From NCBI GenBank assembly GCA_963849325.1, contig CAWKHF010000006.1:416001-480000 (forward strand): DNA of 64,000 nucleotides, read 5' to 3'. How positions within the stretch are numbered: the first letter of the stretch is position 1; every line of letters starts with the position of its first letter. Below the pieces are notes generated by a model that saw nothing but the letters and a program-made list of their open reading frames with translations, ran no database searches and was not told where the DNA came from. Source of the DNA: an uncultured Planctomycetota bacterium. GTDB taxonomy: Bacteria > Planctomycetota > Planctomycetia > Gemmatales > Gemmataceae. A program made the translations under genes and the position numbers. Positions 20,634-63,289 of this stretch are shown here, piece by piece.

Positions 20634-20835
20634 GGTCTTGGGTGGGAAGAGCGAACAGCATCAAGGAAACCACTTCCGCCAGGCGTTGTCAATCGTGTTC
20701 AACAAACGCTTCCGAGCCTGAAGCGTGAGTGAAGGAAAAGAAACTTCTGCTTAGCTTGACATTTGTTCACAAGAAGAGTATCTTCCGGCCCGTGTTTCGC
20801 CAACTATCCAGAGTTTTTGAGAAGGAGGAAGAGCC

Positions 20836-21291
20836 ATGTCGAAGCGACCCGCGCGGCCGCAAAGTTATCCGTGGTTGTCTCCGTACCTGACCGTGAAGGA
20901 TGCGGATGCCGCCATCGACTTTTATCAAAAGGCGTTCGGCTTCGAGAAACGCATGTCTCTGCACGGGCCGGATGGCCGAACCGGCCACGCCGAGATGACG
21001 TGGAAGGAGGCGATGATTATGTTTGGGGCGGTCCCGGAGTCGAAGCGCGACGAATGGCCCTGTCGGCCTCCGGCCGAGAAGGGGATCCACTCGCCGATCA
21101 CGCTGTACGTTTATTGCGAGGACGTGGACGCCCTGTTCACCCGCGCCGTCGCGGCGGGCGCCAAGGCGATCAAGCCGCCGCAGGACGTTTTCTACGGCGA
21201 CCGAATGTGTACGCTGGAAGACCCGGACGGCTACTGGTGGAGTTTCGCCACCAATGTCGCCGACTTCGATCCGAGCAAGGTGCCCGGATAA
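20836..21291 (+). CDS. VOC/glyoxalase (PhnB-like) protein
   Basis: PYLTVKDADAAIDFYQKAFG, DVFYGDR, DPDGYWW. Confidence 0.9.
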   Translation: MSKRPARPQSYPWLSPYLTVKDADAAIDFYQKAFGFEKRMSLHGPDGRTGHAEMTWKEAMIMFGAVPESKRDEWPCRPPAEKGIHSPITLYVYCEDVDALFTRAVAAGAKAIKPPQDVFYGDRMCTLEDPDGYWWSFATNVADFDPSKVPG

Positions 21292-21295
21292 CGAC

Positions 21296-22098
21296 TCAGG
21301 TTTCCACGACCGCCGACTGCAACGCATGCAGCAGGTGGTCCAACCAGGCGACCAGGGTATCGGGGTTGGGGACGTGGGCCGCGGCCGACAGCGGCGCCTG
21401 CGGGCCGACGCCCAGGGTGATGCCGCCCAGGGACGTCACGGCCGCGAAGGCGTCGCTGTCGTTGTCGGCATCGCCGGCGTAGAAGACGAAGGCCGGTTCG
21501 CCAACGTGGTCCACGATCTTCTGTACGGCCTCACTCTTGGTCCCCGCGCCGGCCACGGTAACCTCCAGGGCCCGTGGGACATCGACGATGCGCAGCTCCT
21601 TGGTCCAGCGCTCCAGGAAACCCAGGACGCGCGAACGCACTTCCTCCGTCTGAGACGGCGCGACGCCGCGATAATGGACCGTGAAGCCGTAGCGCTTGTG
21701 TTCGACCCACGCTCCGGGATAGACCTGCTCGATGGTCGCCAGCCGCCGCGTCACCTCGTCGATCAGCTGGACGCTCTGCAGGGCGGCGGGGTGGACAAAG
21801 GAGGAGCCGTCATGCAGCTTCAGTTCGATGCCGCTCAGGCCGCCGTACAGTAGGTCGGGAATGTCGATCAGCTTCTCAACGTCTTCGAGCCGTCGGCCGC
21901 TGAGGACGCCGACGTGCGTGCGCGGGAGGGCGGCGAACTGCCCGAGCAAGTCGCGCGTCCGGGCGCGATCTTCGCCAACCACGGAAACTCGACGAGCGGC
22001 GTCAAGGTGCCGTCGTCGTCGAAGAGCAGGACCAACTTTTCACCGGCGTGATGGGCGGCAACCAGGGGCACCAAAACGTCCGGCAGAGATTCGTCCAC
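21296..22098 (-). CDS. otsB: Trehalose-6-phosphate phosphatase; frameshift near 21965
   Basis: LLFDDDGTLTPLV, VLSGR, WVEHK, TVHYR, YAGDADNDSDAF. Confidence 0.85.
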
Positions 22099-22266
22099 GT
22101 TTCACTCCTGTTCTGTTGCCGTGGACGTGTCCGTGTCGCGGCGCCACAAAGGGGCCGGCGTCGAAGGAGGGCAAGCCAGCCCAGCAATAGGTGAAGGGTG
22201 TCGGCGGTTTGCTGGGTATCCGCCTCCACGGATGGGAAATAACAACCTTTGTTCAATGTATCATTT

Positions 22267-22283
22267 TGCAAACGAGATGCCAA
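22267..22283 (-). promoter_or_regulatory. sigma54 (-24/-12) promoter upstream of otsB
   Basis: Minus strand TTGGCATCTCGTTTGCA matches TGGCAC-N5-TTGCW with correct GG/GC spacing, about 170 bp upstream of the start. Confidence 0.65.
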
Positions 22284-22309
22284 CGCCGCGATGGATACGA
22301 GGGGCCTCC

Positions 22310-22363
22310 TCCGAGCCTGAAGCGTAAGCGAAGAGATGCTCTTCGCTTACGCTTCAGGCTCGG
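22310..22363. repeat. REP-like palindrome (CCGAGCCTGAAGCGTAAGCGAAG family)
   Basis: Perfect arms; related copies at 57291-57342 and 63196-63266, half copy near 20712. Confidence 0.85.
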
Positions 22364-22388
22364 ATAAACACGTTTTGTCCTCTCGCTC

Positions 22389-24245
22389 CTAATCGTTATC
22401 GGGATGATGATTGAGGGCGCGCGAGCTGAGACGCGCCAGGAAGCGTCTTTTCTGCTCGCCGGTCAGCTCCTTGGTGTAGCGTTTGCGCGTCGCGTCGAGC
22501 CAGCGGACAGGACGCTCGCCGTAGTCGGTCACGACGCGCGTCAGCACCGGGCCGGGGTGATCGAGGGCGGCGTGGAGTCCGCCGCACAAATCGCCCGGCC
22601 CGGTGATCTCCACGTATTCCAGCCCGAAGGCGTGAGCCAGGGCGGCGTAATCCAGGTGGGCCAGCATTGTCGCCGTCGTGCGGCGGTACGCCTTGAGCTG
22701 CAACGCCTGCATGTAGTGAAACGCCCGATCGTCCAGGATGAAGAACTTGACCGGCAGACCCTCGCGCGCCGCCGTGGACAGTTCCATCGCCGTCATGAGG
22801 AAACAGCCGTCGCCGGTGAGGGTCACGACCTGCCGGCCGAAATGGACGCGCTGCGCGCCGATGGCGGCGGGGACCGACCAGCCCATCGACTGATTGTCGG
22901 TTGGGTTGAAGTAAGTGCGCGGCTGGAGCACCGTGAACGCCTCGGCGGCCCAGTGCTCCGAACAGCTGACATCGACGAAGACGAGGGCGTCCGGGCAGGT
23001 GGCCTTGCGCAGCGCCAGGATGAAGGCCATCGGATCGACGCCGCAACGGTTGTAGCATTTGGCGTGCTCGGCGGCGTCCTCGCCCTTCCATTTGTGGATG
23101 CAGGCGACGAGGTCGTTATTGGGCGGACGGCGGATGTCGTCGGCATGGTCGAGAAGGCGGTCGAGGAAGACGCCGGCGTCGGCGTTGACGCACACCTCGG
23201 TCTTGAGGATGCGGCCGATGTTCTTGGGATTGATGTCCACGTGGATGATGTGCGGACTCTGCGGGATCGAGTAGAAGGCGGTCGAGACCTCGCTGTAGCG
23301 GACGCCGATGGCCAGTACCACGTCCACCTTGTTGAAGGCGTTCTCGGCCGTGTGAGTGCCCTGCGGGCCGTAGCCCCAGCCGACGGCCAACGGATGACAC
23401 TCGCTGACGACGCCCTTGCCCGAAACGCTGGTGGCGATCGGCGCTTGCAGCACCTCGGCCACATTCACCAGTGACTCCGTGTAGTCCATGCAGCCCATGC
23501 CGGCGTAGATGCCGACCTTCCAGACGCGATTGCTGAGCAATTGCAAGGCGCAGTGAAAGGCGCCCTCGTCGAAGGGCAGATCGCACGGGGCCAGCGGCAG
23601 GCAATCGTACTTGCACGTGTCGATCAGCAGCGTGTACGGCACGACGACGGCGGTCGGACCCGGTTCGCCGCACATCGCCAGACGAAAAGCCTGGCGCACC
23701 GCGTTGGGAATCTCACAGGCATGGCAAACCTCGAAGACGCCCTTGCACACCTGCTGGAGCAGACCGACCTGCGGCAGTTCGTGGACCTGGAAGGGGCGAT
23801 ACTTGTCGCCTCGGGCCACGTCGCCGACGATGGCCACGATCGGCACGCTGTCCAGCAGCGCCTCGCCAAGTCCGCTGAGCGAATTGGTGACGCCCGGTCC
23901 CGGAACAATGGCGATGACACCGGGCCGGCCGGTGCTGCGCGCAACGCCGTCGGCCATGTACGCGGCCGACATCTCATGCGTCACCAGCAGATAAGGGAGG
24001 TGCTGGCTCTTCATTTCGTCCCACAGTTCGTTCTCCTGGGCGCCGGGGATGCCGAAGACACAGGGCACGCCTTCGGTTTTCAGGGTCGCCACCAGCGCCG
24101 CCGCTCCGGTCATCTTGCCGGCGATGACTTCCGGCGGCGCCTTGTGGGCGGCGTCGGCCGGTCCCGGCCGCCCCGCCGGCAGCGAAACCAGGCATCCGGC
24201 GGCCATCGATTTCAGGACGGTTCGGCGCGAAACGGGCTGTGGCAT
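22389..24245 (-). CDS. Thiamine pyrophosphate-dependent enzyme (acetolactate synthase-like) with Tat-like leader
   Basis: FGIPG, HEMSAAYMADG, PGPGVTN, SMGWSVPAAIG, GDGCFLM. Confidence 0.9.
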   Translation of the reverse strand: MPQPVSRRTVLKSMAAGCLVSLPAGRPGPADAAHKAPPEVIAGKMTGAAALVATLKTEGVPCVFGIPGAQENELWDEMKSQHLPYLLVTHEMSAAYMADGVARSTGRPGVIAIVPGPGVTNSLSGLGEALLDSVPIVAIVGDVARGDKYRPFQVHELPQVGLLQQVCKGVFEVCHACEIPNAVRQAFRLAMCGEPGPTAVVVPYTLLIDTCKYDCLPLAPCDLPFDEGAFHCALQLLSNRVWKVGIYAGMGCMDYTESLVNVAEVLQAPIATSVSGKGVVSECHPLAVGWGYGPQGTHTAENAFNKVDVVLAIGVRYSEVSTAFYSIPQSPHIIHVDINPKNIGRILKTEVCVNADAGVFLDRLLDHADDIRRPPNNDLVACIHKWKGEDAAEHAKCYNRCGVDPMAFILALRKATCPDALVFVDVSCSEHWAAEAFTVLQPRTYFNPTDNQSMGWSVPAAIGAQRVHFGRQVVTLTGDGCFLMTAMELSTAAREGLPVKFFILDDRAFHYMQALQLKAYRRTTATMLAHLDYAALAHAFGLEYVEITGPGDLCGGLHAALDHPGPVLTRVVTDYGERPVRWLDATRKRYTKELTGEQKRRFLARLSSRALNHHPDND

Positions 24246-24434
24246 GGGAGCCTCCTGACAGGCGGGTCGCTTGCACGGCAGCGCGAAGCCATGAGTAGCT
24301 ACCACCTTTATCGGCTTTTCCGGTCTCGCCCTTTATGCGGAGTTTGCCGATTTGTCGATGCCAGGTATGCCTTTCGAGGGTCTGGTTAGGCGCCAGGGAG
24401 GATCGCTCCTACAATCACGGTAGGAGGTGCAGCC

Positions 24435-24659
24435 ATGACACCCGTATCGTCCGTGGTCCATAGTGACCCCGACATCCTGGGCGGCGTGCCGGTGTTCGTT
24501 GGCACCCGCGTGCCCGTCCGGGCGCTGATCGACTACCTCGGCGGCGGCCAGCCGCTCTCCGAGTTTCTAGAGGACTTCCCGTCTGTCAGCCGCGAACAGG
24601 CGGTGGCTGCCCTGCGGCTGGCTGCTGAGGCACTGATGGCCCATGCGAATTCTGCTTGA
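24435..24659 (+). CDS. DUF433 antitoxin
   Basis: DPDILGGVPVFVGTRVPV...FLEDFPSV. Confidence 0.92.
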   Translation: MTPVSSVVHSDPDILGGVPVFVGTRVPVRALIDYLGGGQPLSEFLEDFPSVSREQAVAALRLAAEALMAHANSA

Positions 24660-24965
24660 CGAGTGTGTGCCCCAGCGGCTGGGCCGGGAGCTGACCGGCC
24701 ACGCCGTCCAGACGGTCCCGCAGCAGGGCTGGTCGGGCAAGAAGAACGGAGAGTTGCTCGGCCTCATGGCGGCGGCCGGGTTCGAGGTGCTGCTGACGGT
24801 GGACCAGGGCATCCCGCACCAGCAGAACCTGCCGCGGCCGGGGTGGCGGTGGTGGTGATGGCCGGCCCGAGCAACCAACTCGTGGATCTGGTGCCGCTAG
24901 TGCCTGGCGTAGTGGCCGCGCTGGGAACGATTCAGCCAGGCGATGTGGTCGAGATCCGCACCTAA
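24643..24965 (+). CDS. DUF5615 PIN-like toxin; frameshift near 24832
   Basis: MRILLDECVP, GWSGKKNGELL, LLTVDQGIPHQQNL; overlaps DUF433. Confidence 0.88.
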
Positions 24966-25100
24966 CAAGTTGTTGCAGTAGACCCGCCATGCAGCTTTGC
25001 CACGCATTAGCGGTTTTTTAGCTCAATGCGTGGCAACTTTCCTCAATGCGTTGCAGGAAACGCGCCAGAACTGTAGTTCCAAAAAGCGAACATTTTTTGC

Positions 25101-25129
25101 TTGACAGGTGTCAACATTCCGGCTATCGT
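25101..25129 (+). promoter_or_regulatory. sigma70-like promoter with palindromic operator; probably leaderless mRNA
   Basis: TTGACA-17-TATCGT, palindrome TTGACAGGTGTCAA over the -35, ATG 6 nt after the -10. Confidence 0.6.
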
Positions 25130-25135
25130 TCCTGA

Positions 25136-25981
25136 ATGGGAAGGCCACGGCATCCGAATAAGCACATCGAGAAGGCCGTCCAATACGCGGAGGCTCTCGG
25201 ATGGCGCGTCGAGCTATCAAATGGTCATGCTTGGGGCCATTTGCTCTGCCCACAGAGTACCCGTGAAGGGTGCATTGTCGGGGTCTGGTCTACTCCCAAA
25301 AACGCTGAAAACCACGCTCGCCACATCCGGCGTGAAGTTGATATTTGTCCTCATGGAACACCTAGCAAAGGCAACGTTGAAGAACTACAGTGTGCAAGAA
25401 AAAAGGGGAGGGAAATGAAAACCGGGAAGCCGTGTGAGCGGGAGCACGACTTTGTCCTGGTCCTGACTGGCATTAACGAGTTGACGCCATCAGTGGAGGA
25501 AGCTCTGTTTGAGGCCGGCTGCGATGACGCTACGCCTAGCGTCCGATTCGGTCGAGTATACCTAACCTTCTCGCGTTGTGCCGCATCTCTGAAAGATGCA
25601 ATCCTGAGCGCAATTCAGGACGTGAGGGCGGCCAAGATCGGGGCAGATGTACTCCGAGTCGATCACTGCAACCTTGTCACGCAGGCCGACATTGCCCGTA
25701 AAATCAACCGAAGTCGGCAGCTTGTTCATCAATACTACACTGGAGTCCGTGGCCCTGGCAACTTCCCGCCCCCGGTTTGTCACATATGCGATGAGTCGCC
25801 ACTTTGGTATTGGTGCGAGGTTGCCTATTGGCTTTGGGAGAACGACATGATTACAGAGGATGTGTGTCGGGAGGCTGAACATGTCGCCTTCATCAATACT
25901 GTACTAGAGCTTAAAAACCAACGAGAGATTGATCCGAAGTTAGCAGAAGAGGTACTCCAATCAATCGGTGCAGCTCAGTAA
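25136..25981 (+). CDS. HicA-like toxin domain + HicB-like/HTH antitoxin domain (one ORF as sequenced; internal RBS+ATG at 25415)
   Basis: HPNKHIEKAVQYAEALGWRV...GHAWG...VWSTPKN; second half EALFEAGCDDA, LVTQADIARKINRSRQLVHQY, FPPP. Confidence 0.65.
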   Translation: MGRPRHPNKHIEKAVQYAEALGWRVELSNGHAWGHLLCPQSTREGCIVGVWSTPKNAENHARHIRREVDICPHGTPSKGNVEELQCARKKGREMKTGKPCEREHDFVLVLTGINELTPSVEEALFEAGCDDATPSVRFGRVYLTFSRCAASLKDAILSAIQDVRAAKIGADVLRVDHCNLVTQADIARKINRSRQLVHQYYTGVRGPGNFPPPVCHICDESPLWYWCEVAYWLWENDMITEDVCREAEHVAFINTVLELKNQREIDPKLAEEVLQSIGAAQ

Positions 25982-25999
25982 GTTTTTGCTTCCAGTATG

Positions 26000-26034
26000 C
26001 GGCAAGTCCCAGTCTAATAAGCCGGGACTTGCCG
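26000..26034. terminator. Hairpin between convergent genes
   Basis: CGGCAAGTCCC...GGGACTTGCCG followed by TTT. Confidence 0.6.
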
Positions 26035-26035
26035 T

Positions 26036-27321
26036 TTAACTAGGTCGCTGCATTCTTAGGATCATCCCCGCGCCGTCCTGTCGCTCCTCCGGCTCCTCAT
26101 CCTTCCAGAATACCGGCACGATGCCAAGCGTTTCTTGCTCCTGAATCAAGCAGGACAGGTTGTGGCAGAGGATTTTGCACAGCACTTCGTTGACCATCGA
26201 CATTTCGTTCTTGCTCGCCACCCTGTCGCCGAACTTCCGCTTGATGGCGCGAGAAGGTGATCTCGACGTTGCTGCGCTTGTGATAATGGGTCATGTACTC
26301 TTCCTGGTTGCACTGAAAGTAGTGGTAGGCTTTCTCGAAAGCGCCGCCAATCGCGCCCGTGCTGTTGGACTTGAAGGCAATGAACGCCTGCCCGCCGCAA
26401 GCTGCAACCTCTTCAAAGTTCTCCACGGAAAGGTAAGCCTTGTCGGCGCTCACTTCGCCGATCTCAAAATGCGTCTTCGTCTCGCGGACCAGCGGGACGA
26501 ACTGAGGGCAATCATGGGCATCCTTGTCCAGAATGCGGACGGCAGTAACGACATTCGTTTTCACGCCGGAGGCGATATGCGTCTTGACCCAGATGCCGCG
26601 CGTCCGCGTGACGCCGTACTTGTGGTCGTACCAGCGCTCGTAGACGGCAAGTGCTGAACCCGCTGCTGTCGATGGCGAAGTCTTTTTCGACCGGATCGCA
26701 ACGGACGGGCCTTTCGCCGACGAGCTGCTTGAGAACCGGCGTGTAGTACGGGTCTTCCATGAACGTTGTCGCCTTCATGCCGGGAATCAGCTTGCGGGTG
26801 AATCCTTTCTCGTAGGCTTCCTGCAAGGTCTGTGGAGAAGCGGCGGGCGCTGTAAACCGCAGTAAACCTTGTAGGCCATCGTGAAGACGGCATCACTAGA
26901 ACGCGTGCGGCTTCGTGCCCGTCGTGCTTGCCGGCCGCTGCGCGATCTGGCACGACGGCGAGCAGAGGTCGTGCAAGAGGACGCGGAGGCGGCGCTTCTC
27001 CGTGGCTTGCGCCATGTTGTACTTCGGCCAGTCCTGCTTGTAGGTCTTCCGCTCGGTGAGCGTAATCGTCTTCGTCTCAATCACGGTGCCATCCGGCAGC
27101 ACATCCCTCTTGTGGACGATGGACGCGGCGTAGAAGTGCTTGCAGGTGTTGCCGCCGTCAACGTGATCCAGGCAAGTGCAGGTCTTCGCTTCCAGGTTGA
27201 CGCGGTACGTCGCGTTACCGCTCTTGTTGGACTGGCTCGGCACAAGCCAGGTGCCGTCGTTCATGCGGTTCAGCCGACAGGTCGCCGCGATGATGAGTCC
27301 ACGCTGCTCTCTGGCGTCCAT
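26036..27321 (-). CDS. Transposase: N-terminal SWIM zinc finger + IS4/IS5-clan DDE domain; frameshifted
   Basis: CTCLDH...CKH (SWIM); FAIDSSGF, HDCPQF, ADKAY, YHKRSNVE.TFS (YREK-like). Confidence 0.85.
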
Positions 27322-27357
27322 TTTCTCAATCTCCGGGACAACGCTCTTGTCCACATT

Positions 27358-27386
27358 ATTGTATACACCGGAGACAGATTTGTAAA
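27358..27386 (-). promoter_or_regulatory. sigma70-like promoter of transposase 1
   Basis: TTTACA-17-TACAAT on the minus strand, embedded in repeated TGTNNAC motifs. Confidence 0.55.
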
Positions 27387-27443
27387 CATATTGGTAGACA
27401 GTTTTCCTAGTTTTTCTCGGCTTTTTTCGTAATCGCTTGCCAG

Positions 27444-27677
27444 TTACAGAAGGTCTTTCAGGTTCCGGTTGATGGCCCAAGCAAAGTCGAGAAGAGTGGA
27501 AAGACGGGGATCGTAGTCCGATTCAGGATTGAGCAGGCGAGACACTGCCTGCCGTGCCCCTCCCTTAGCAAGCCCCATGCGGAGGCCGATCTCTTCCTGC
27601 GTCATGCCGCTTTCTTCGGCTGCCTGACGCATTCTCTGTCGGACAGAGGCGACCGCGAGATGGTTCACCTTCCCCAT
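27444..27677 (-). CDS. XRE-family HTH regulator
   Basis: GMTQEEIGLRMG...AVSRLLN...DPRLSTL. Confidence 0.85.
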   Translation of the reverse strand: MGKVNHLAVASVRQRMRQAAEESGMTQEEIGLRMGLAKGGARQAVSRLLNPESDYDPRLSTLLDFAWAINRNLKDLL

Positions 27678-27808
27678 GTTGTAAGTCTACACCTTCGTAG
27701 TCATTCGGGCAACATGAACGTTGGCAACAGTAACTGCCACGAAAAGACACCCTGCTGTGGAGAATGGTCCTCGTAACTCCTTTTGCGTCACCGTCTTGCG
27801 ATGTTCTA

Positions 27809-27837
27809 TTGACATAAGCCCTTATCGAGCTTACAAT
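27809..27837 (+). promoter_or_regulatory. sigma70-like promoter for the methyltransferase-PIN genes
   Basis: TTGACA-17-TACAAT. Confidence 0.6.
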
Positions 27838-27888
27838 TAGGACGAGTGTAGGAGCACTAGATGCCCCCGTCCTCAGCTGAGGTCCGGT

Positions 27889-30445
27889 GTGAAATTCACA
27901 AGCGCAGTGCAGGAGCAATCATTCCGCGCGGTGCTGCGCGCGTTGGAGCGGTTGGGTTACACTCGCGACGTTTTGTTGAAAGAGGAGTATCCCTTCGACG
28001 ACTGGTTCTTGCCCGGCAACCAAGAGCGAGTCGCCCCAGCCGTGGCCTTCGGCCAGACCCCTCTCGCTTACGACAGCGCTTGCTTCGCGGTGGTGGTGTC
28101 CAACGGCCAGCAAGGCCCCGAACTGGTCAACCAGTATCGTGCCTTGGGTGCCCCCCTCGCTATCGAAGTTCGCCCTGACAAGGTAGTACACTGGCGAGTC
28201 AGCCGAGCCATGTCGGCTGGAGATGAGCAGTTCGTCATCCCCCCGGATCGGGTAGAGGATGCCTTCCAGGAGAATGCGCACAAGTGGAACCCGGAAAGTG
28301 TTTTTCGGGCAAAGAACATCGCCGCAACATCTCCCCGCCAAGCCGACTTCGTGGACCTCGGCTTAATCCCTGCACTGGAGCAACACGTTCGCGCCAAACT
28401 CGATCCCTTGCTGCGGGAGGTATTGCACGCGGGGAAGAAGGAGTATGAATACCGCAAGGGAGGACCGCCGGACCCAGACAAACTGTACCGCCTTGTATTC
28501 CGGACCCTCGCGGGGAAGATGATGTCTGAGCGGGGGGTGTTAGGCTTCCACTCGGCCAACGGTGCGCCGAACGCCCCGGATCTCTAGACAAGGTTGCCAA
28601 ATTCTACAGTGATTCCCAGCCGGTCGTTGCCGATGTGTCAACCCAACGGGTTGTCGTGGAAAGGCTGTGGCAGAGCATCAGCCTGAGAAATCTGTCCGTC
28701 GAAGTGCTGGCGTTCGTCTGGGAGAACACCCTTGTAACCAGGGATATTCGCGAGGAACGAGGCATTCACGCCACCCCGCCCAGCATCGCCCGATACCTCG
28801 TTCACCGCCTGCCTATCCAAGACATTCCACAGGCTGAGCGGCGCATTGTCGAACCTTGCTGTGGGAGCGGCACGTTCTTGGTTGCGGCCCTCCAGCGACT
28901 GCGTGAACTGCTACCGCCTTCGATTGACCCGCGGAGTCGGCACAAGTATTTCACCGACATGCTCAGCGGGTTCGACAATGAAACCTTCGGCTTGGAGGTG
29001 GCGCGTCCAGCCTAATGCTTGCCGACTTCCCGAACCCGAACGGGTGGGCGCTCGTCGAGGAAGACGTTTTTGGGACGCCCGAGCAGTCGCCGCAGTTCCA
29101 CGCCGCTTTGCAAGCAGCCCGCGTGGTTCTGTGCAACCCGCCATTCGAGCCGTTCAAGCCACGGGACCGCGCTTTGTACGAGTTACGCTCCGTCCATAAG
29201 CCGGTGGAACTATTGCAGCGAGTCCTCGACCAACTCGGAAATCAGGGGCTTCTTGGCTTCGTACTTCCCCAGCAACTACTCAATGGGGTGAGTTACCGCA
29301 GCATTCGAGAGAGACTGGCCGAGCGGTATGAAGAAATCGAGTTGGTCGGCTTGCCGGATAAGGTCTTCGAGAAGTCTGAACACGAAACAGCTCTCCTGCT
29401 GGCGAAGGTCCCGCGAACCCATCGGGGGCCGCTGTCCATTCTCCACCGCAAGGTCGAGGACAGGGGTTGGCCTCTCTTTAACGCTTACTCCCAGGTCAGC
29501 CGAGAAGACGCCGGAGCCAAGACCCCAGCGCAAGCATCCGACAACATCGGGATACCCGACCTCCAAAGCATCTGGACGCGCACTGGCCGGATCACCCACG
29601 GTCGGCGATGTTACGGGCGGGAACGTCCACCGCGGCATCGAATGGAATCTTCCACTGGACGAGAACAAGTGAGCTGTTGATCTCCAAGGCTGCACAGCCC
29701 GAATATGGCGCGGCGTGCCGCGTGCGCGAAGAGGCTTTTACTCCTACCAGTGCCCATCTCTCTCATACCTCTGCATGAAGGAGGAGTACCGAAGAAGGAA
29801 CGCTTTCAACTTGCCTTGGAATCTACCCAAGGTAATCATGAACGCGAAGCGGAAGTGCGCGGTCCCTGGCGGATTGCGGCATACGCCGACGAGGCCGGAC
29901 TGGTTTGCTACCAGACGTACACCGCCCTGTGGCCGTCTGGGGATTGGACTGCGACGGCTCTGGCCGCAGTCCTCAACGGGCCGGTTGCGAATGCGTTCGT
30001 TGCGTCCCACGAAGGCAATCGTGACATCACCGTCGAGACAGTCAAGGCAATTCCGGTTCCGCCGCTGACGAATGCCCTGAAAGGGGGGCTTACGAAGTTG
30101 GTAGCCGAGTATCGGACAGCCGCCGAGCGAATGGAGCTTGAAGTCAGGTCGGGCGAGCGCTCAGCGCGCGACATCCTTCGCGAGATTGACGCGGCCATCC
30201 TGAGAGCCTACGACCTCTCGCCTAGGCTCGAACATGAACTGCTCAACTATTTCAGCGGGTATGGCACGAAGAGGCCAGTGCCCTTCAACTTCGGCGACTA
30301 CTACCCGGCCGACTTTAGCTCGCATATCCCCTTATGGATGTTTCTCTCGCCAGAGTTCCAGAGAGGCAACCCGCAGGACATCTTGTCGAAAGCTCCTAAG
30401 ATCACCGATCCGGCATTGATCGACGCATTCCGTGAAGTGGAGTAA
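27889..30445 (+). CDS. N6-adenine DNA methyltransferase, type IIG/Eco57I-like architecture; several frameshifts
   Basis: GIHATPPSIARYLV, motif I EPCCGSGTFL, motif IV NPPF, GFVLP, TRD-like LAAVLNGPVAN...IPVPP, EIDAAILRAYDL. Confidence 0.8.
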
Positions 30446-30451
30446 CCTGCT

Positions 30452-31010
30452 TTGCCAAACGGAAAACTGCTCGACAATAACGTGATTTCGGTTCTTGCGA
30501 GTGCCAAGGACCCAAGGAGGCCGATAGCGGAGGCACACCTAGCCGCGTCTGGTTTCGGGCCGATTGTCTTTCCGTGCATCGCTATCGGCGAAATCGAATT
30601 TGGGATGATGAAGGCGACAAACCCAGACGCGGCACAACAGGCGAGCATGAGGGCATTCCTTAAGCGCTATCCGATTCTCCCTTTCGACCATCACACCGTC
30701 GAACCGTATGCGATGATTCGCGCAAAAACTCTGGCTCATGTTCGGCACTGCGAAGGTGCGCGGTCACGCCGAAAAACTCCCAGAAGAGTTGAAAGACCGC
30801 GCAACAGGACTCTGCCTAGGTATCGATGAACGAGACTTACTCATCGCCAGCATCGCGGTAGCGTTTAACCTATTCCTGGCGACGATGGATCGCAATGACG
30901 GGATGCGGCGGATTGAGGCAGCTGCGGCGGTCCTTGAAGCAGAAGGCAAGCCTGTTTGCCTCCGGATTGAGGATTGGTCGAAACCGTTGCCCGGCGCGTC
31001 TGACTATTGA
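30452..31010 (+). CDS. PIN-domain (VapC-like) nuclease; frameshift near 30728
   Basis: LLDNNVIS, IAIGEIEFG, GIDERDLLIASIA, LATMD, IEDW. Confidence 0.82.
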
Positions 31011-31126
31011 GTCAAAACGTTGCAGACCGCCTCAAAACGTTGCAGCTCGCCAATGCGTTGCAAAGCTCCGCCATGCAGCTTTGCCACGCATTGACACTTT
31101 TTCACGTCAATGCGTGGCAACTTGCC

Positions 31127-32428
31127 TCAATCCGTTGCAGGCGGCGAAAACCGTAGGACCATCCGCGCGCTGTCCTGTCGCTCCTCTAGCTCCTCATCTT
31201 TCCAGAAACCGGGCACGATGCCAAGCGTTTCCTGCTCCATGAATCAGGCAGGACAGGTTGTGGCAGAGGATCTTGCAAAGCACTTCGTTGACCATCGACA
31301 CGTTCGTTCTTGCTCGCCACGTCTGCCCCGAACTTCCGCTTGATCGCGGAGAAAGTGCGTTTCGACGTTCCACCGCTTGTGGTAGTGCGCCATGTACTCT
31401 TCCTGGTTGAACTGGAAGAAGTGAAACGCCTTCTCGAAAGTGCCGCCAACCGCGCCCGTGCGCGTTGGACTTGAAGGCGATGAACGCCTGCCCGCCGCAC
31501 TCGGCGACCGCCTCAAAGTTCTCCACGGATGGCGTAAGCCTTGTCCGCGCATCACTTCGCCGATCTCGAAGTGCTTCCGCGTCTCGCTTGACCAGCGGGA
31601 CGAACTGCGGGCAATCGTGGGCGTCCTTGTCGAGAATGCGGACGGCCGTAACGACGTTCGTTTTGACGCCGGAGGCGATGTGCGTCTTGACCCAGACGCT
31701 GCGCGTCCGCGTGACGCCGTACTTGTGGTCGTACCAGCTTCTCGTAGCCGCGAGCTGCCGAAGCCGCTGCTGTCGATGGCGAAGGCCGTTTCGAGGGAGC
31801 GGAGCGGGCGGGCGCTGTCGCCGATCGAGTTGCTCTGAGGATCGGCGTGTAGTACGGGTCTTCCGCGAACGACGTCGCCTTCATGCCGGGAATCGGCTTG
31901 CTGACGAAACCCATCTCGTAGGCTTCGTGCAGGTCCGTGGTGAAGCGGCGGGCGCTGCAGGCCGCAGTAGACCTTGTAGGCCATCGTGAAAAGGGCATCG
32001 CGAACGGCAGTGCGGCTTCCTGCCGGTCGTGCTTGCCGGCCCGGTCGCGGGCCGGGAGACGGGAGCAGAGGTCGTGCAAGAGGACGCGGAAGACGGCGTT
32101 TCTCCGTCGCCTGCGCCACGTTGTACTTCGGCCAGTCCTGCTTGTAGACCTTCTTTTCGGTGAGGGTGATGGTCTTCGTTTCGATGACGGTGCCGTCGGG
32201 CAGAACGTCGCGCTGGTGGACGATGGAGGCGGCGTAGAAGTGCTTGCAGGTGAAGCCCGCCCTCGGTGTGGTCCGGGCAAGTGCAGGTCTTCGCTTCCAG
32301 GTTGACGTGATAGGTAGCGCGTCGCCGCCTTGGTGGACTGGCTCGGCACAAGCCAGGTGCCGTCAGGCCAGGCGGTTGAGCCGACAGGTCGCCGCGATAA
32401 TCAGGCCGCGCTGCTCTCTGGCATCCAT
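31127..32428 (-). CDS. SWIM-DDE transposase, second diverged copy; many frameshifts
   Basis: MDAREQRGLIIAATCRL, CTCPDH...CKH, FAIDSSGF, YHKRWNVE; stop codon lies in the left-end repeats. Confidence 0.85.
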
Positions 32429-32563
32429 AGCGATTGCCTTCCATTGAAGGGCGGAATCGCGTAGAATGAATCTTATGCGAGGTCGCATTCTGGCGCTGAT
32501 CCGCCGGACTGTGATCTGCTCAGCAGCCGTTAGCGCGGCTGCTGAGCGTTTCGGTTTCTGCAA

Positions 32564-32637
32564 GGTGCATGACGGGAATCGAACCCGCAACCCTCCGACC
32601 ACCAATCGGTTGCTCTGCCTGTTGAGCTACATGCACC
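32564..32637 (-). tRNA. Atypical tRNA: GGT at the anticodon position with His-like G-1:C73
   Basis: G-GTGCATG TA GCTC-AACAGGCA-GAGC A ACCGA-TTGGTGG-TCGGA GGGTT GCGGG-TTCGATT-CCCGT CATGCAC-C folds as a cloverleaf; no encoded CCA. Confidence 0.8.
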
Positions 32638-32698
32638 ATCGGGTTAGACGGAAGGCAGCACTTCCGTCTAACCCATCCTCCTCCCTTACCTTGATATG

Positions 32699-32726
32699 AT
32701 TATATCGCTATCAGGGTAAAAATCAA
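32699..32726 (-). promoter_or_regulatory. sigma70-like promoter for the tRNA and transposase 2
   Basis: TTGATT-16-TATAAT on the minus strand; direct repeat CTATCAG; divergent TTGACA-17-TAGGAT at 32768. Confidence 0.6.
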
Positions 32727-32820
32727 GCCTATCAGCCTTCTTTCTCAAGAATTTTTCGAGCCAGTTCTTGACATGGCCCGATTGCCTGGATAGGATTTAT
32801 CGAGAAAGGGGGATTTTGTC

Positions 32821-33619
32821 ATGGCGGCAAGCGAGGAAAAGAAACGCACGCGAAGCCCAGCCTACCCAAGCATTGATCTTAAGGAAGCGATCCATTACGC
32901 GGAGACGGCGTACAGCGAGGAAGACCACCACGCATTCACTCCAGAGGCGGCGGCGGAACACTGGGGCTACAAGTCCACCAGTACGCGCCGTGAGCCAAAT
33001 AATTTCGGCACTGAAGCAGTTTGGCTTGCTCATTGAAGAACACGGTAACGAGGTTCGACGGGTTCGACTATCGCCGCTAGCTCTTGATCTCATAGTCCAT
33101 GAAGACGAAAGCGATCTACAGAGGAGAGATTTGCTTAAGACTGCGGCCCTGAATCCGAAAATCCATCGAGAAATTTGGGACAAATACGGTGGCAAGTTGC
33201 CCTCCGATACTTCCCTGAGAATCTATCTTCTGCGGGAACGGGAAGGATCGCCCTTCAACAAAGATCAAGTCGATAGGTTTATCAGCCAGTTACGGGAAAC
33301 AATCGAGTTTGCAAAGCTCGCTCCGGGTGATAAAATGTCCGAAGGGGGTGCTGCTACGGTCGATTCAGTCGAGGAAGACAGCAACGGCGACGGTGACGTG
33401 GATGAAGGCAAGCAGCGCTCTCCGCAGCGGAGACGAGCGATGCAGACAGGGCTTAAAGAAGACGTTTACACATTGGATCAGGGGCAGGTCGTCGCCATCC
33501 AGTGGCCCGAAAAGATCGACGCGGGCGAGATTGAGGACGTAGCGGACTGGATGCAGTTGGTCATCAAGAAGATGAAACGCTCCGCTCAACAGGAAGAGAC
33601 AAAGGAATTTGCTGAATAA
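32821..33619 (+). CDS. Hypothetical protein, possibly winged-helix DNA-binding; frameshift near 32985
   Basis: RSPAYPSIDLKEAI then ISALKQFGLL; own promoter and RBS. Confidence 0.6.
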
Positions 33620-33889
33620 GCGGATGCGATCCACACAAGAAGTCCGGCCAAGCAGCCGGGCTTCTTCCTGCGCCTCTGCGTCCGCCCGCTCTGCGTGGCG
33701 GGCTAAGGGATCACCGGCGAGAGGTCTCAAAGTCCAGAAACGCCAATGATGCGGAGGGCGCAGTAGCAGAGGTAAGCTTGGATGGAGGAATCGCTCTTGC
33801 TGTACAGTCGTATCGGTGAGTAGACTAAGACAAAAGGAGAGCGTGGTAGCGCTCTCCTTGTCCCACACAAACCTGTTCAGGAGGTCGGT

Positions 33890-34666
33890 GTGACTACAAG
33901 TCATCCTATCGTTCGACGCCGTTTCGAGCAAGGTGTCCTTGTCTTCGACTACGGCGAAACACACGTCCGTTGCGGCGGAACTGCTGACAAGCCTTGGTTC
34001 GTCGCCAAGGACATGTGCGAGGTTCTTGGGATCTCCAACCACAGCGACGCCATCGGCGGGCTGGATGACGACGAGAAAGGTGAGGTCGCTATTGCCGACC
34101 CCATCGGCAGAAAGCAAAAGACGGCAATAGTTTACGAATCGGGTCTCTACCAACTTGTCTTCCGGTCCCGCAAACCCGAAGCCAAGGCGTTTCGCAAGTG
34201 GGTCACGTCCGAAGTCCTGCCTTCGATCCGCAAGACCGGCTCGTACCGCGCTCGGGAACGCCAACGGTATCAGCAGTTGGGTCTATCTCCTGAATGGATC
34301 GAAAAGCGCGAGGAAGGAATCGCTGCCCGGAATCAGTTCACAGACACCCTCAAAGAACATGGAGTAACGGAGGGGCGAGATTACGGTCGCATCACGAACA
34401 CGCTCTATTACCCAACGCTCGGCGGTGCGGCTGCCGCCGTCCGAAGTCGCCTAGGCATTCCCGTAAAAGCAAGCATTAGAGACAACTTGCCACTGCTGGA
34501 GTTGTTTAAGGTGGGCATGGCCGAATTGCTAGCTCAACGAAAGATCGAAGTAGAAAATCGACAAGGCTTCGATGAGTGCAATCAAGCCACGGCGATGGTG
34601 GCCAACAACGTCGCCAACGCCGTGAAGCAGACCGAAGAGGGCAAACGGCTGCCTCCTTCCGAGTGA
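33890..34666 (+). CDS. BRO-N domain (phage antirepressor-like) protein
   Basis: PWFVAKDMCEVLGISN, ESGLYQLVFRSRKPEAKAFRKWVTSEVLPSIRKTGSY. Confidence 0.92.
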   Translation: MTTSHPIVRRRFEQGVLVFDYGETHVRCGGTADKPWFVAKDMCEVLGISNHSDAIGGLDDDEKGEVAIADPIGRKQKTAIVYESGLYQLVFRSRKPEAKAFRKWVTSEVLPSIRKTGSYRARERQRYQQLGLSPEWIEKREEGIAARNQFTDTLKEHGVTEGRDYGRITNTLYYPTLGGAAAAVRSRLGIPVKASIRDNLPLLELFKVGMAELLAQRKIEVENRQGFDECNQATAMVANNVANAVKQTEEGKRLPPSE

Positions 34667-35035
34667 ATGAAAATCGGGCCGACCAGTTATGCTTGGCATA
34701 ACTGGTCGGCTCTTTCTCTTGCCGTCCGTGGATCGCCAATCCGTTGCAGCCGACCGAATTTCGTTGCAGGTGCCCAAAGCGTTGCAAAGACCCGCCATGC
34801 GATGGATGCTTGCGCGTCATCACAGCTCATCTCGCGTAAGCCGGTTGCTGGGCGCGGTGACGCCCTGGTTGAGGCATCTTCCACCTTTGTTGGCTTTGCC
34901 GTCTGCACGCTTCCCGCAGTCCTTGCTGCGAAAGCCTTATCCCGCGTCGTCCGCGCGGCCTTGTTCCGAGAGGCTGGAGAAGTTAAGTTAAATTTTCCGT
35001 CTCCGGCACTCCCCCTTCCTCATCGAGGAGAACCC

Positions 35036-37812
35036 ATGAAACGCACCTTGCTGGTCGTGCTGCCCTTGGCGGCGCTAACCCTCGGCCTGTTCGGCCACGC
35101 CGCTCCGTCGGGGCATTCGTCCGATGATCCGCCGAAGAAGTTCGAGGACTTCGACAAGGTCGTCAAGGGGGCCAAGCAATACGACGGCCTGTTCCGCCTG
35201 TTCCACAAGGACGAGCACCTGTACGCCGAGATCCGCACCGACCAGCTCGGCAAGCCGTTCCTCTGCCCCATCGCCATCGCGCGCGGCGCCGGCCTGGGCG
35301 GCTACACGCTCAACTTCGACGAGCAATGGGTGCTCCTCTTCAAGCGCGTCGGCGACAAGGTCCACCTGGTCCGCCGCAACGTCCACTTCCAGGCCAAGGC
35401 CGGCTCGCCGGCCGCTCACGCCGTCGAGACCACCTACACCGACTCGGTGCTGATGGCCCTGCCCATCAAGGCCATCAACCACGGCCACAACTCGCGTCCT
35501 GCTCGACTTCAACGACATCTTCATGACCGACTTCGCCCAGCTGAACCTGGGCTCGCTTCGACGCCAACCGCAGCACCTGGCACAAGATCAAGGCGTTCCC
35601 GCGCAACATCGAGCTGGAGGTGGCGGCCACCTTCGACGGCGGACGCGGCTTCTCGCTTCTTCGGCGACGACAGCGTCATCGACAGCCGCGGCAAGACCGT
35701 CGTCATCCACTACGGCCTGTGCCAGCTGCCCGAGCACGGCTATCAGCCGCGCCTGGCCGACGACCGCGTCGGCTACTTCCTCAGCGTCGTCAAGGACTTC
35801 AGCTCCGACAACGAGGACACGTCGTTCCTGCGCTACGTCAACCGCTGGCGGCTGGAGCGGGCCGAGCCGGTCGATCCCAAGCACCCCAACAAGCTGTCGC
35901 CGCCGAAAAAGAAGATCGTCTTCTGGATCGAGAAGTCGGTGCCCGACGAATACCGGGCGGCCGTGCGCGAGGGCATCCTCGAATGGAACAAGGCGTTCGA
36001 GAAGATCGGCTTCCGCGACGCCATCGAGGTGCGCCAGCAGGAGAACGAGGACTTCGATCCCGAGGACATCAACTACAACACGTTCCGCTGGATCACCACC
36101 GACCAGGGCTTCGCCATGGGGCCGTCGCGGGCCAACCCGCTGACCGGCGAGATCCTCGACGCCGACATCATCTTCGACGCCAGCATGGTCCGCTTCTGGC
36201 GCGAGGAGGCCAAGCTGTTCCGCGGCGACGGCAGCGCCGGCCAGCCTGATCCAGGCCACCCGCGCAGGGTTGGAGCCTGTTCGATCCGCCTGCGCGCCCG
36301 ATCGCCAGCGCGCAGGCTGTGATGGAAGGCTGGAACGATCCCAAGAAGGCGGAGCAGAACCGACTGCGCGCCCGCCTGCTGGCGACGCGGCAGGGTCTCT
36401 GCCAGTGCGGTGCCGCACATGCAGCTACGAGCTGGGCATGGCCGCCATGACGCTGGCCGCCAAGGGCGAGACCAAGCCCGGCGAGAAGCTGCCCGACGAG
36501 CTGATTCAGCAGGCCATCAAGGAAGTGACCATGCACGAGGTCGGCCACACGCTCGGCCTGCGGCACAACTTCAAGGCCAGCACCATGCTCAAGAACGAGC
36601 AGCTGCACGACACCAGCCATCACGCGCAAGCAAGGGCCTGGTCGGCTCGGTCATGGATTACGCCCCGATCAACCTCGCCCCCAAGGGCGTCAAGCAGGGC
36701 GACTACTTCAGCACGACCATCGGGCCCTACGACTACTGGGCCATCGACTACGCCTACAAGCCGCTGTCGGGCGGCACCGACGGCGAGGCTGGACAAGCTC
36801 AGGAGATCGCCACGCAAGGCGCCAAGCCCGGCCACGACTACGCGCACCGATGAGGACATGTTCAGCACGTCCGACCCGCTGGTCAACGTCTGGGACCTCG
36901 GCGCCGACCCGATGAAGTTCGCCCAGGACCGCATCCTGCTGGCCGAGGAGCTGCTCAAGGGGCTGGCCGACCGCGTCGTCGACAAGGGCGAGGGCTACCA
37001 GCGCGCCCGGCTGGCCTTCAACGTGCTGCTGGGGCAGTACGGCAACGGCGCCTACCTGATCGGCCAAGTTCATCGGCGGCGAGTACATGCACCGCGACCA
37101 CCGCGGCGACCCCAACGGCCGCGATCCGTTCGTCCCCGTCACGGCCGACAAGCAGCGCGAGGCGCTGAAGTTCTTGCAGGAGCACATCCTGTCGCGACAA
37201 GCACTTCCAGTTCTCGCCGCGGCTGCTGCGCCGTCTCGGCGCCGATCGCTGGCTGCACTGGGGCAACGAGATGGACGCGTTCGGCTCGGTCGATTACCCG
37301 CTGCACCAGCGCATCCTGAACATCCAGCGGATCGTGCTGGAGCACGTTTTCGACCGGCCGTGCTGTCGCGCATCCAGAACAACGCCGTGCAAGGCGGACA
37401 AGGACGAGAAGCCGCTGACGATCGCCGAGGTGTTCCGCGGCGTGACGGACGGCGTCTGGAGCGACGTGCCGGACAAGGACGGCAAGGAGGCCAAGCAGCC
37501 GCGTGTCCTCGTCGGTGATCCGCCGCAACTTGCAGCGCGAGCACCTGAAGAACCTGTACACCTTGGTGCTGGGCAAACGACAGCAGAACGATAGCTTCTT
37601 CTTCTTTTTCTTCGGCGGTGGCGACAGTTCGGTGCCGCCGGACGCCCGCAGCCTGGCGCGCATGCACCTGCGCGACATCGGCAAGCGCATTGACGCCACG
37701 CTCGGCGACAAGCAAGGCGACCGTGGACGACACGACCCGCGCTCACCTGGAGGAGTGCCGCGAGCGCATCGCCAAGGTGCTGGGCGCCTCGATGCAGGTG
37801 AATGAGCCGTAA
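35036..37812 (+). CDS. Zinc-dependent metalloprotease (DUF5117/DUF4953 type); many frameshifts
   Basis: Signal peptide, PRLADDRVGYF, WNKAFEKIGF, NPLTGEILDADI, HEVGHTLGLRHNF, SVMDY. Confidence 0.9.
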
Positions 37813-37870
37813 ATCGTTCGCGCCTCGCCCTCGGCTCCCCGAGGGCGAGGCCGCTTCTTGGAATCGAATC

Positions 37871-38656
37871 TCAGGGTTGTTGAGGCGGTAGCTGGCGGCG
37901 GAGCTGTTCGAGTTCTTGTCGCAGTTGCTCCACTTCCGCCTCGGCGCGACGGCGTGCATCTTCCTCCCGAGCGCGTCCTTCGTCGGCGCGTTGGCGTTCG
38001 ATCTCCGCCTGAAGACGGCCCTCATGCTCCTCGGGAGGGGTCGGCAGCCATCGCGCGGTTGCCGGATCATACAAACGCAAGAACCTGCCGCCGCGCTCCA
38101 GGTGCAGCCCCAGTCTTTCACTCGGCAGTCGTCCGTCCACGGGCTGGATCGCCTGGTACTGGCCTTCGATTAAACGATAACCCTGCAGCGATGGCTCCAT
38201 GTATTCCTCGTAGGGATCGAAGAGAAAATATTCCTTCACTCCCAGTGGGTCACGATACAGGGCCATCTTATCGTCGATGTCTTCCTCGCGCGTGGAGTCG
38301 GACGTCAACTCGATGACCACGTCGGGCACCTTGCCTCCTTCCTCCCAGACGAGATAGCTTCGTCGTTCCGGATCGGTGTGCTTGGGAACGCCGTGGACGA
38401 CGAACACATCCGGCGACAGGTGCTTCAAGCGATCGCCGGGAACGTAATAGAGGAACATATTGCCGGCGATGAACACCTGCGATTCTCGTTCGTACCACAG
38501 GCGCAGCATGTATACGAGATAGGCCAGGTTATCGGCGTGCAGAGGAGTTTCGCCCATGGGTCGTCCATCCGAATCGGGGTAATGGACGTTCGAGATGGTC
38601 CGCGCGGGAGGGACGGTTGCCTTCGTCGTCACCTTTTTTTTCACGCCCACTTGCAT
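37871..38656 (-). CDS. Uma2 family endonuclease
   Basis: YPDSDGRPMGET, PDVFVV, PDVVIELTSDST, GVKEYFLFDP, coiled-coil tail. Confidence 0.92.
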   Translation of the reverse strand: MQVGVKKKVTTKATVPPARTISNVHYPDSDGRPMGETPLHADNLAYLVYMLRLWYERESQVFIAGNMFLYYVPGDRLKHLSPDVFVVHGVPKHTDPERRSYLVWEEGGKVPDVVIELTSDSTREEDIDDKMALYRDPLGVKEYFLFDPYEEYMEPSLQGYRLIEGQYQAIQPVDGRLPSERLGLHLERGGRFLRLYDPATARWLPTPPEEHEGRLQAEIERQRADEGRAREEDARRRAEAEVEQLRQELEQLRRQLPPQQP

Positions 38657-38659
38657 GGC

Positions 38660-39268
38660 TCACCTCCGTTCGGTTCGGATGGCATTCACCGTCGTGTACT
38701 CGATGCCCAGACGACGTCCTTCTTCTTTCGCTTTCCCTTGATACAGGTTCGCCTGGGGCACATCAATCCCGGCGCTGGCGTCCTCAATGAGTAGCACACG
38801 AAAACCCGCCTGCCGTAGATCGCGAGCCGCGAAGAAACAGCAGATGTTCGCGGCCAGTCCGCACACGACGACCGTGGAGATGCCGCCGGCACGCAGCAGG
38901 TCCGCGAAGCCCGGATGCTGCGCCGTCAGGGCGTAGGCCTCGAAATCTCGATCGTAACCCTTGCGCCAGACTGCATGGAAGCGCTCGGTATGTAGGCCGG
39001 GCAGGAAGTCGGCGCCGGGCGTACCCTGGATGCAGTGCGGTGGATAAAGGTTGTCGCGCTGGCCGCGGAAGCTGCAATGATCGGGCGGATGCCAGTCCTG
39101 GCTGGCGTCGATGCGCGCCCACGGCCGTTCCAGCAAGCGATTGACGTTCGGCACGATCTCCAGTCCGCCGGGTACGGGCAACTCCGGGGGGCACAATTCC
39201 GTAAAGCCGCGCTGGGCATCGACCACCAGCAGACTGCTCGCGGCAAGGGGAATCGGCTCCACAATCAC
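38660..39268 (-). CDS. pncA: Nicotinamidase / isochorismatase family
   Basis: LLVVDAQRGF, SQDWHP, PPHCIQGTPGA, CGLAANIC. Confidence 0.85.
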   Translation of the reverse strand: MIVEPIPLAASSLLVVDAQRGFTELCPPELPVPGGLEIVPNVNRLLERPWARIDASQDWHPPDHCSFRGQRDNLYPPHCIQGTPGADFLPGLHTERFHAVWRKGYDRDFEAYALTAQHPGFADLLRAGGISTVVVCGLAANICCFFAARDLRQAGFRVLLIEDASAGIDVPQANLYQGKAKEEGRRLGIEYTTVNAIRTERR

Positions 39269-39324
39269 TCACTCTCTTACTTTTCCAGGGCGGCGAGAAC
39301 ACTCCGAGAGTCGCTAACCAAATA

Positions 39325-39412
39325 CCATTTTGACCACGGATAACACGGATGACACGGATAACGAAAACCAGAATGCTTCTTGTGTTTTATCCGTGTTATC
39401 CGTGGTCAAAAT
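39325..39412. repeat. Palindromic ACCACGGATAACACGGAT-type repeat
   Basis: CATTTTGACCACGGATAACACGGAT...ATCCGTGTTATCCGTGGTCAAAATG. Confidence 0.8.
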
Positions 39413-39463
39413 GCATTTGATTCCTGCCCCTTACGAGAAACGACTGCCGATGGAGACGATCCA

Positions 39464-42246
<2,783 letters not shown>

Positions 42247-63266: not shown

Positions 63267-63289
63267 AAAGAACCTCCCTGGAGGTACCC

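Follow-up and report, generated by a model that had tools for sequence, protein, structure and literature searches.

What had two transposons recognized when they settled one behind the other just downstream of a toxin gene in an uncultured planctomycete? The locus lies in a 64,000-nucleotide stretch of DNA (positions 416,001 to 480,000 of contig CAWKHF010000006.1, assembly GCA_963849325.1, family Gemmataceae), referred to here at its full length as the window, and the two mobile elements are called elA and elB. Together they split a site that resembles an integron attC. attC sites are the handles for capture and shuffling of gene cassettes. The best explanation, and a very probable one, is that elA and elB are IS5-like DDE transposons in the decaying attC of a lone cassette, and that they belong to a clade which prefers that exact attC position in either orientation. 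The anatomy of the insertions, the homology of the target to attC, the recurrence of the position and the clade itself are established by the comparisons given below. Genomes are labelled G, contigs C and extracted loci L. G000 is the genome of the window (8.16 Mb, 65% G+C, 14 contigs, 84.7% complete), and the other G-numbers are further genomes.

Two transposons in tandem

elA and elB, both IS5-like DDE transposons, are related to each other and lie in tandem (Table 1). They have a common left start, AGCTTTGCC, and several GTTGCA-type repeats lie near the ends of both. The 9-bp duplication CCGCCATGC is present in three exact copies, one on either side of the pair and one between the elements. 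The two transposase genes are ~85% identical at the DNA level, and G+C content falls to ~56% across 24993-34791, the span from the left end of elA to the right end of elB.

The target resembles an attC

The toxin-antitoxin pair in front of elA stands alone between two core genes. As the first-pass annotation had noticed from the sequence, the toxin stop codon (TAA, 24963-24965) lies within ACCTAAC, which places a box of the attC form RYYYAAC, R'', directly after the cassette open reading frame (ORF). The empty site was rebuilt by taking out elA, elB and two of the repeat copies, and this gives the same string that the annotation had quoted. On an alignment of true attC, the two stretches that it had paired fall on the L'' and L' arms.

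That reference alignment comprised 19 true attC from arrays adjoining an integron integrase (IntI) in G006 (same genus as the window), G093 and G016, plus the array on G022:C715, whose own integrase was not located. It has the canonical attC form, with a 7-bp R''/R' stem and an L''/L' stem carrying two extrahelical bases, and nine of its 21 pairs show compensatory changes. One of the G006 sites matches the rebuilt window site almost base for base in both arms.

A hidden Markov model (HMM) of the 19 sites was used for scoring, with the whole G000 genome as background. The rebuilt site gave 15.7 bits over 80 model positions (2-81), with an E-value of 0.12 against the 8.16-Mb genome; scaled to one 400-nt target this is ~6e-6, by arithmetic from the genome-wide value. 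The left half alone, in the intact genome, gave 12.9 bits. In the L-stem, 13 of 14 model pairs can be formed by hand count (nine Watson-Crick and four G.T, with one mismatch), and both extrahelical bases (G and A) are in place by hand alignment to the model. Model positions 82-96, which form R', were left unaligned, so R' has decayed, in agreement with the earlier suggestion that the closing GTTRRRY is degenerate.

The cassette itself has a relative in a recognizable array. G022 holds a copy of the window toxin-antitoxin pair (81% DNA identity) among four regularly spaced attC (94-99-nt repeats starting with GCC(G/T)AAC and ending with GTTAGGC), which constitutes a cassette array, and there too the toxin stop lies inside R''. 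Intact toxin homologues are present in G007 and G022. The N-terminal piece of the window toxin matches PIN_10 (23.9 bits) and DUF5615 (18.8 bits), both under the cut-offs. Across the bacterial family, 114 of 251 genomes have IntI above cut-off, among them two of the ten others searched from the genus of the window.

These sequence comparisons support the view that the toxin-antitoxin pair is an integron-type gene cassette and that the target is the relic of an integron attC in which R' alone has decayed, as the first-pass annotation had proposed. Our reading turned from rejection to attC because of the G022 cassette array, the IntI of the family, the 19-site alignment, the G006 match, the GTTAGGC boundary upstream of the pair and the different toxin-antitoxin pair in G002. 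In G002 the same two core genes flank a different toxin-antitoxin pair (L020, G002:C3, 460-1280; a toxin-like ORF and an XRE-type antitoxin), with GCCTAAC and an L''-like stretch after the stop. The intergenic spot between these core genes may receive single cassettes repeatedly.

The same position in other attC

A third insertion of this element type in G000 lies on C10. In the window and at C10 alike, the duplication maps to model positions 25-33, immediately behind the invariant GAC of L'', and the orientation of the element relative to the attC is opposite at the two loci. The gene with its stop in the R''-like box of the C10 relic (L211, 1536-2591, minus strand) encodes a full-length 351-aa Ada protein with zinc-binding, AraC helix-turn-helix and O6-methylguanine methyltransferase domains.

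The clearest case outside G000 is G268, a Planctomycetota metagenome-assembled genome with a cassette array. One of its attC is split by a 4.64-kb element that encodes an intact transposase of 428 aa and is bounded by a perfect 9-bp duplication. An uninterrupted attC with the same L'' and an identical 9-nt stretch lies on either side of the split one, whose right half is complete, including L' and GTTAGGC. When the space between L'' and the element tip was allowed to vary, the single real junction obtained was the one in G268, and its gap was exactly 9.

Metagenome contigs supplied 11 further junctions, retrieved with the spacing fixed, each made up of a real attC left half, nine bases and an element tip. 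Several of them lie inside arrays with many intact attC, and five contigs carry a transposase 72-83% identical to that of G268. The 11 junctions include miniature elements of two kinds, 98 and 86 bp, which are non-autonomous derivatives of this element type; both have full duplications at the attC position, and the attC right half follows the 98-bp one. The miniature elements are found at L235 (1172-1310, reverse strand), L236 and L239, in metagenome cassette arrays, and the 98-bp type has opposite orientations in L234 and L235. A miniature of ~95 bp whose tips are the same inverted pair (GCTTTGCCACGCATT) is located outside attC in G000 (C7:194472-194566).

Ten distinct duplications were counted over all attC cases, which indicates independent insertion events. 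The transposase gene is antisense to the attC in seven elements and sense in two.

One clade of an IS5-like family

The intact G268 transposase matches DDE_Tnp_1 (73.6 bits). The nearest NCBIfam model is transpos_IS5_2 (115 bits, under its cut-off of 140), whereas IS1182 gave 53 bits against a cut-off of 270, and no IS110-family (DEDD) match appeared in the transposase searches. The protein has ~200 extra N-terminal residues. Of 251 genomes of the same bacterial family, 75 have matches to the transposase, as against none of 15 genomes of the sister family. Multi-copy relatives gave exact ends; their tips read GGCTTTGC...GCAAAGCC, and the 9-bp duplications beside them are unrelated in sequence.

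The first-pass annotation had inferred that this DDE family might be another attC-targeting lineage, and had suggested comparing the insertion sites of homologous elements. Among 21 elements with defined ends, four are in attC (elA, elB, C10 and G268) and 17 lie elsewhere. Targeting by the whole family was rejected on this count. attC number ~5 to 56 per genome by the model, equal to ~0.01-0.05% of the DNA; placement by chance at this density predicts well below 0.1 of the 21 elements in attC. A transposase tree was built from sequences aligned to the G268 protein, with the three G000 sequences patched from frameshifted pieces. A clade of 11 is made up of the nine elements borne in attC plus two of unknown context, and every element known to sit outside attC falls outside it. 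For one clade member, G253 (L215), no attC was found and the ends are unclear. The comparisons thus uphold the earlier inference for one clade, through C10, G268, the 11 metagenome junctions and the tree, and not for the DDE family as a whole.

A common G-Y-TGCA motif at a fixed distance was also considered for insertions outside attC; it is present in L056 and L216, is absent from L055, L058 and L214, and no rule emerged. The attC HMM (nhmmer), run over 45 insertion sequence (IS) loci (274,659 nt), gave one weak match, in L047 (E = 0.14), inside the element. In L047 (G117:C32) an attC-like left half lies at 2123-2162, between the transposase stop and the tip of a sister element, and is followed by a small ORF; a cassette fragment may have been taken up by this element.

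A possible route to the site

The proposed sequence of events starts from a toxin-antitoxin cassette alone between core genes, its attC decaying. elA and elB would have entered this attC by ordinary cut-or-copy transposition, each with a 9-bp duplication starting right after the GAC of L''. Recognition probably rests on the R''/L'' side of the attC. L'' would act as a pseudo-end, as the transposase presumably binds the GTTGCA repeats near the element ends. The form G-Y-TGCA-R-C is common to L'' and the subterminal repeats, where it lies 5 and 4 bases from the cut, respectively, and the target GTTGCAGTAGAC does resemble the elB end GTTGCAAAGAC, a likeness already pointed out in the first-pass annotation.

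Insertion at this point would leave L'' and one 9-bp copy intact, so that a second element could land at the same place. The tandem arrangement of elA and elB would be explained in this way, because L'' and the nine bases survive the first insertion. Sister elements also tend to land by end-like sequence: the element of L225 abuts the tip of a relative, that of L066 is nested 9 nt inside the tip of a relative, and L065 is a further case. Taken to its full extent, the proposal is that a protein-only DDE clade recognizes L'' because this box imitates the ends of the elements. Every insertion would then fall at the same base and restore the target, and the clade would be a third class of integron parasite. 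This fuller version is plausible, though it falls somewhat short of probable.

Weighing the evidence

A number of observations weigh against the view that these transposons seek out attC and entered one here. No integron integrase above the TIGR02249 cut-off was found in G000 (best score 85.3 bits against 265, in a genome that is 84.7% complete), and for this reason the relic is regarded as a lone attC without an integrase. No GTTRRRY complementary to R'' lies at the expected distance from L', and the nearest, GTTGAGG at 34868-34874, is displaced and has one extra base. A sequence HMM stood in place of a covariance model when the rebuilt site was scored. Minimum-free-energy folding of the rebuilt site as DNA, with three end definitions and on both strands, was no better than for dinucleotide shuffles (z from -0.3 to +0.64). 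The rebuilt C10 site scored weakly (10.9 bits; E = 3.8 genome-wide, 2e-3 in a 5-kb set and, by arithmetic, ~2e-4 per 400-nt target), and the Ada protein encoded beside it is unusually long for a cassette.

The searches for junctions add to these points. The pattern of L'' followed by a tip, allowing one mismatch, gave 16 matches in 252 genomes of the bacterial family versus 23 in the backwards control, and by inspection only the two G000 loci were real. The variable-gap scan (one genome per species; L'', a gap of 0-30, then an element tip) gave 92 matches with a flat spread of gap lengths, and only one of them, L186 in G268, had a transposase. The metagenome scan retrieved sequences only where L'' and the tip were both present with a gap of exactly 9 between them, and for this reason its 15 matches, four of them apparently due to chance, can show neither frequency nor position specificity. 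Support for the clade of 11 is moderate (SH-like 0.837), and five of its nine attC-borne members had been chosen by an attC-based pattern. Finally, the pseudo-end idea amounts to an 8-nt resemblance with a 1-nt offset, and the attC HMM detected no significant likeness in the IS ends.

Four other explanations were considered. In the first, the transposase recognizes the attC folded as a hairpin or cruciform and not the sequence of L'', perhaps through a SWIM-type zinc finger region at its N-terminus. attC are conserved more in structure than in sequence, some insertions of sister elements outside attC are at palindrome centres (L056 and L230), and the N-terminal residues of the transposase include a CxC...CxH motif and a SWIM match. 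That match is weak, however, and under the Pfam cut-off, and the window relic folds poorly. Furthermore, one of the two tandem insertions must have occurred with the attC arms already kilobases apart, or beside an element end. Recognition of structure is rather unlikely here, although it deserves more credit than any of the explanations that follow.

A second possibility is that the target is not an attC and that a chance palindrome downstream of the gene, for example a terminator, was hit. The folding z near 0, the missing complementary GTTRRRY, the lack of IntI in G000 and a covariance model silent at the intact locus all fit this. The covariance model, built from the 19 sites, reads contiguous sequence and is thus blind to a split site; it found nothing at the locus in the unaltered window, an outcome to be expected when the attC is split. 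Its best weak matches in the window, at 22310-22364 and 63195-63267, belong to a 55-73-nt perfect palindrome (UCCGAGCCUGAAGCG...); they were rejected as attC and look like a repeated palindromic element or terminator. Plain folding is a poor attC test in this case, with bulges and G.T pairs penalised, and it was dropped as a test for that reason. A structure score, which the first-pass annotation had named as the means of refuting the attC, would have misled, as plain folding was negative though other evidence supports an attC. The HMM score, the same register as the same-genus attC with both extrahelical bases in place, and the true attC of the homologous G022 cassette all make a chance palindrome very unlikely. 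In addition, attC are scattered through G000 despite the lack of IntI (37 sites by the covariance model at E ≤ 1 and 26 at E < 1e-4, with 150 of ~10,570 candidates scored). The attC at the stricter threshold, at least 26, occur singly or in small groups on many contigs (for example, C9:297303-297398, C5:705993-706088 and C12:1174037-1174133).

Insertion may also have been random, with elements surviving only in dispensable cassette DNA and so piling up in attC. Sister lineages do insert at unrelated sites, and cassette arrays are rich in transposases, with IS5 making up 49%, IS3 23% and IS110 10% of cassette-associated transposases in the figures available from PMC11089894. Selection of this kind could enrich elements in arrays, but not at a single base position. 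The duplication follows the GAC of L'' in the window, at C10 and in G268, the metagenome junctions, retrieved with this spacing fixed, share the place, the ten duplications all differ, and the one real junction from the variable-gap scan had the same spacing. A safe haven of this sort is a highly improbable explanation of the pattern.

That an integron integrase placed the elements, moving them as cassettes, would suit their location in attC and the abundance of IntI in the bacterial family, but is hardly conceivable given the 9-bp direct duplications, the inverted tips, the DDE transposase, the lack of any attC carried by the elements at their boundary, the position of the insertion inside the L'' stem rather than at G|TT of R', and the 9-bp duplications that the same family makes outside attC.

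Relation to known systems

To our knowledge, only two kinds of mobile element home to attC: an RNA-guided group of DEDD insertion sequences and group II introns. The former are the IS1111-attC elements, for which Tetu and Holmes (2008) and Post and Hall (2009) are reportedly the sources. We know of no duplication in the IS1111 group comparable with the one made by elA and elB. The preferred reading, of DDE transposons that enter attC at one position, shares with the IS1111-attC group (ISKpn4, ISPst6, ISPa21 and others, of the IS110/IS1111 family) a fixed place in integron attC, but as far as the available text describes them those elements have a DEDD transposase and a seekRNA guide and use one end of the attC (PMC11187229). 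In contrast, the elements described here have a DDE_Tnp_1 transposase, inverted tips and a 9-bp duplication, insert just inside L'' in both orientations and carry passenger genes.

Group IIC-attC introns are likewise mobile elements homing to cassette attC, according to the accessible part of PMC3001079, and a group IIB intron is also mentioned in the attC literature, in the portion available of PMC7923331. These introns are retroelements, which combine a ribozyme with a reverse transcriptase, in contrast to the DDE transposase here. No group II intron RNA was found in window positions 20000-40000 (Rfam at the gathering threshold returned tRNA only), and no reverse transcriptase domain was found in the ORFs scanned.

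Within the IS5 family, the IS903-like group is closest, sharing DDE_Tnp_1, the nearest model transpos_IS5_2 and the 9-bp duplication. IS903 itself makes 9-bp duplications, and its ends begin with GGCTTTG. Compared with IS903-like elements, those described here score under the cut-off, have the extra N-terminal residues with a SWIM-like finger, measure 2.6-9 kb and carry passenger genes. No attC preference of IS903-like elements was found in the literature searched. Insertion by a sequence like the element's own end, seen in elA/elB, L225 and L066, has a parallel in IS30. IS30 targets inverted repeats. IS26 inserting beside IS26 is a similar case, as described in the available part of PMC4196232. 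Those systems belong to other transposase families, and the pseudo-end favoured in the present one would be a recombination site of the host. Among the transposases of cassette amplicons the IS5 type is the most frequent, according to the available part of PMC11089894. In the literature searched, which did not extend to subscription journals, ISfinder or supplementary files, no DDE element was described as attC-targeting.

Cargo and other features of the locus

Table 1 Features of the locus (window positions; bit scores where available)
Feature	Position	Strand	Description
R'-type box GTTAGGC	24385-24391	+	Upstream cassette edge, G|TTAGGC junction; G022 homologue preceded by attC ending in the same box
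DUF433 antitoxin gene	24435-24659	+	Pfam PF04255, 64.3 bits, E = 9e-18
DUF5615/PIN_10-like toxin gene	24643-24965	+	Two frames, frameshift near 24830-24860; stop inside R''
Putative relic attC, left half	24960-24992	+	R'' ACCTAAC 24960-24966; L'' GTTGCAGTAGAC 24972-24983; first 9-bp copy 24984-24992; HMM positions 2-33
elA	24993-31067		6075 bp, IS5-like; tips AGCTTTGC...GCAAAGCT; GTTGCA-type subterminal repeats
elA passenger ORF	25136-25981	+	PADLOC: PDC-M06A (residues 1-75) 97.4 bits, PDC-M06B (residues 115-263) 85 bits
elA transposase gene	26081-27480	-	Three broken frames; DDE_Tnp_1 33.6 bits; weak SWIM match; tblastn with intact G268 transposase
elA N6-adenine DNA methyltransferase-like gene, in pieces	28635-30445	+	Pfam N6_Mtase, MmeI_Mtase; PADLOC MTase_II, IIG
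elA PIN-domain ORF	30452-30829	+	PIN 20.9 bits, under cut-off of 23.6
Second CCGCCATGC copy	31068-31076		Common to elA and elB
elB	31077-34791		3715 bp, relative of elA; right tip GCAAAGAC
elB transposase gene	31157-32444	-	Frameshifted; translations and tblastn with G268 transposase
elB tRNA-Thr(GGT) gene	32563-32637	-	Rfam tRNA 59.2 bits; ARAGORN
elB Bro-N domain protein gene	33890-34666	+	Pfam Bro-N 82.6 bits; PADLOC PDC-S13 82.8 bits
Putative relic attC, right half	34792-34874	+	Third 9-bp copy 34792-34800, variable centre, L' arm ~34840-34853, R' degenerate

The passengers of elA and elB include matches to candidate phage-defence families in PADLOC. PDC-M06A and PDC-M06B, a candidate defence pair, are read as a single ORF in elA. 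elB carries its tRNA-Thr(GGT) gene just upstream of the transposase gene, which is unusual cargo for an insertion-sequence-like element.

Frameshifts are present in the toxin gene, in every G000 copy of the transposase gene and in the methyltransferase gene (24643-24965, 26081-27480, 31157-32444 and 28635-30445). They may be indels of a long-read assembly just as well as marks of real pseudogenes, given an assembly of 14 contigs that is yet only 84.7% complete.

Conclusions

The analysis supports, at the level of sequence, targeting of attC by one clade and not by the whole DDE family, and it suggests that these transposons, which seek out attC, are of a kind not described before. If this is true, the clade would be a third and mechanistically distinct class of integron parasite beside IS1111-attC elements and group IIC-attC introns. 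It would also offer a simple protein-DNA system for how a transposase gains a new precise target. Such elements would break attC, inactivate cassettes or strand them singly, stack in tandem and bring defence candidates and a tRNA gene into arrays; the cargo at this locus consists of candidate phage-defence genes, a methyltransferase and a tRNA. Breakage of attC may help to explain the dozens of scattered attC in G000, a genome without an integrase, and integron-type cassettes together with their parasites are common in this large-genome environmental lineage.

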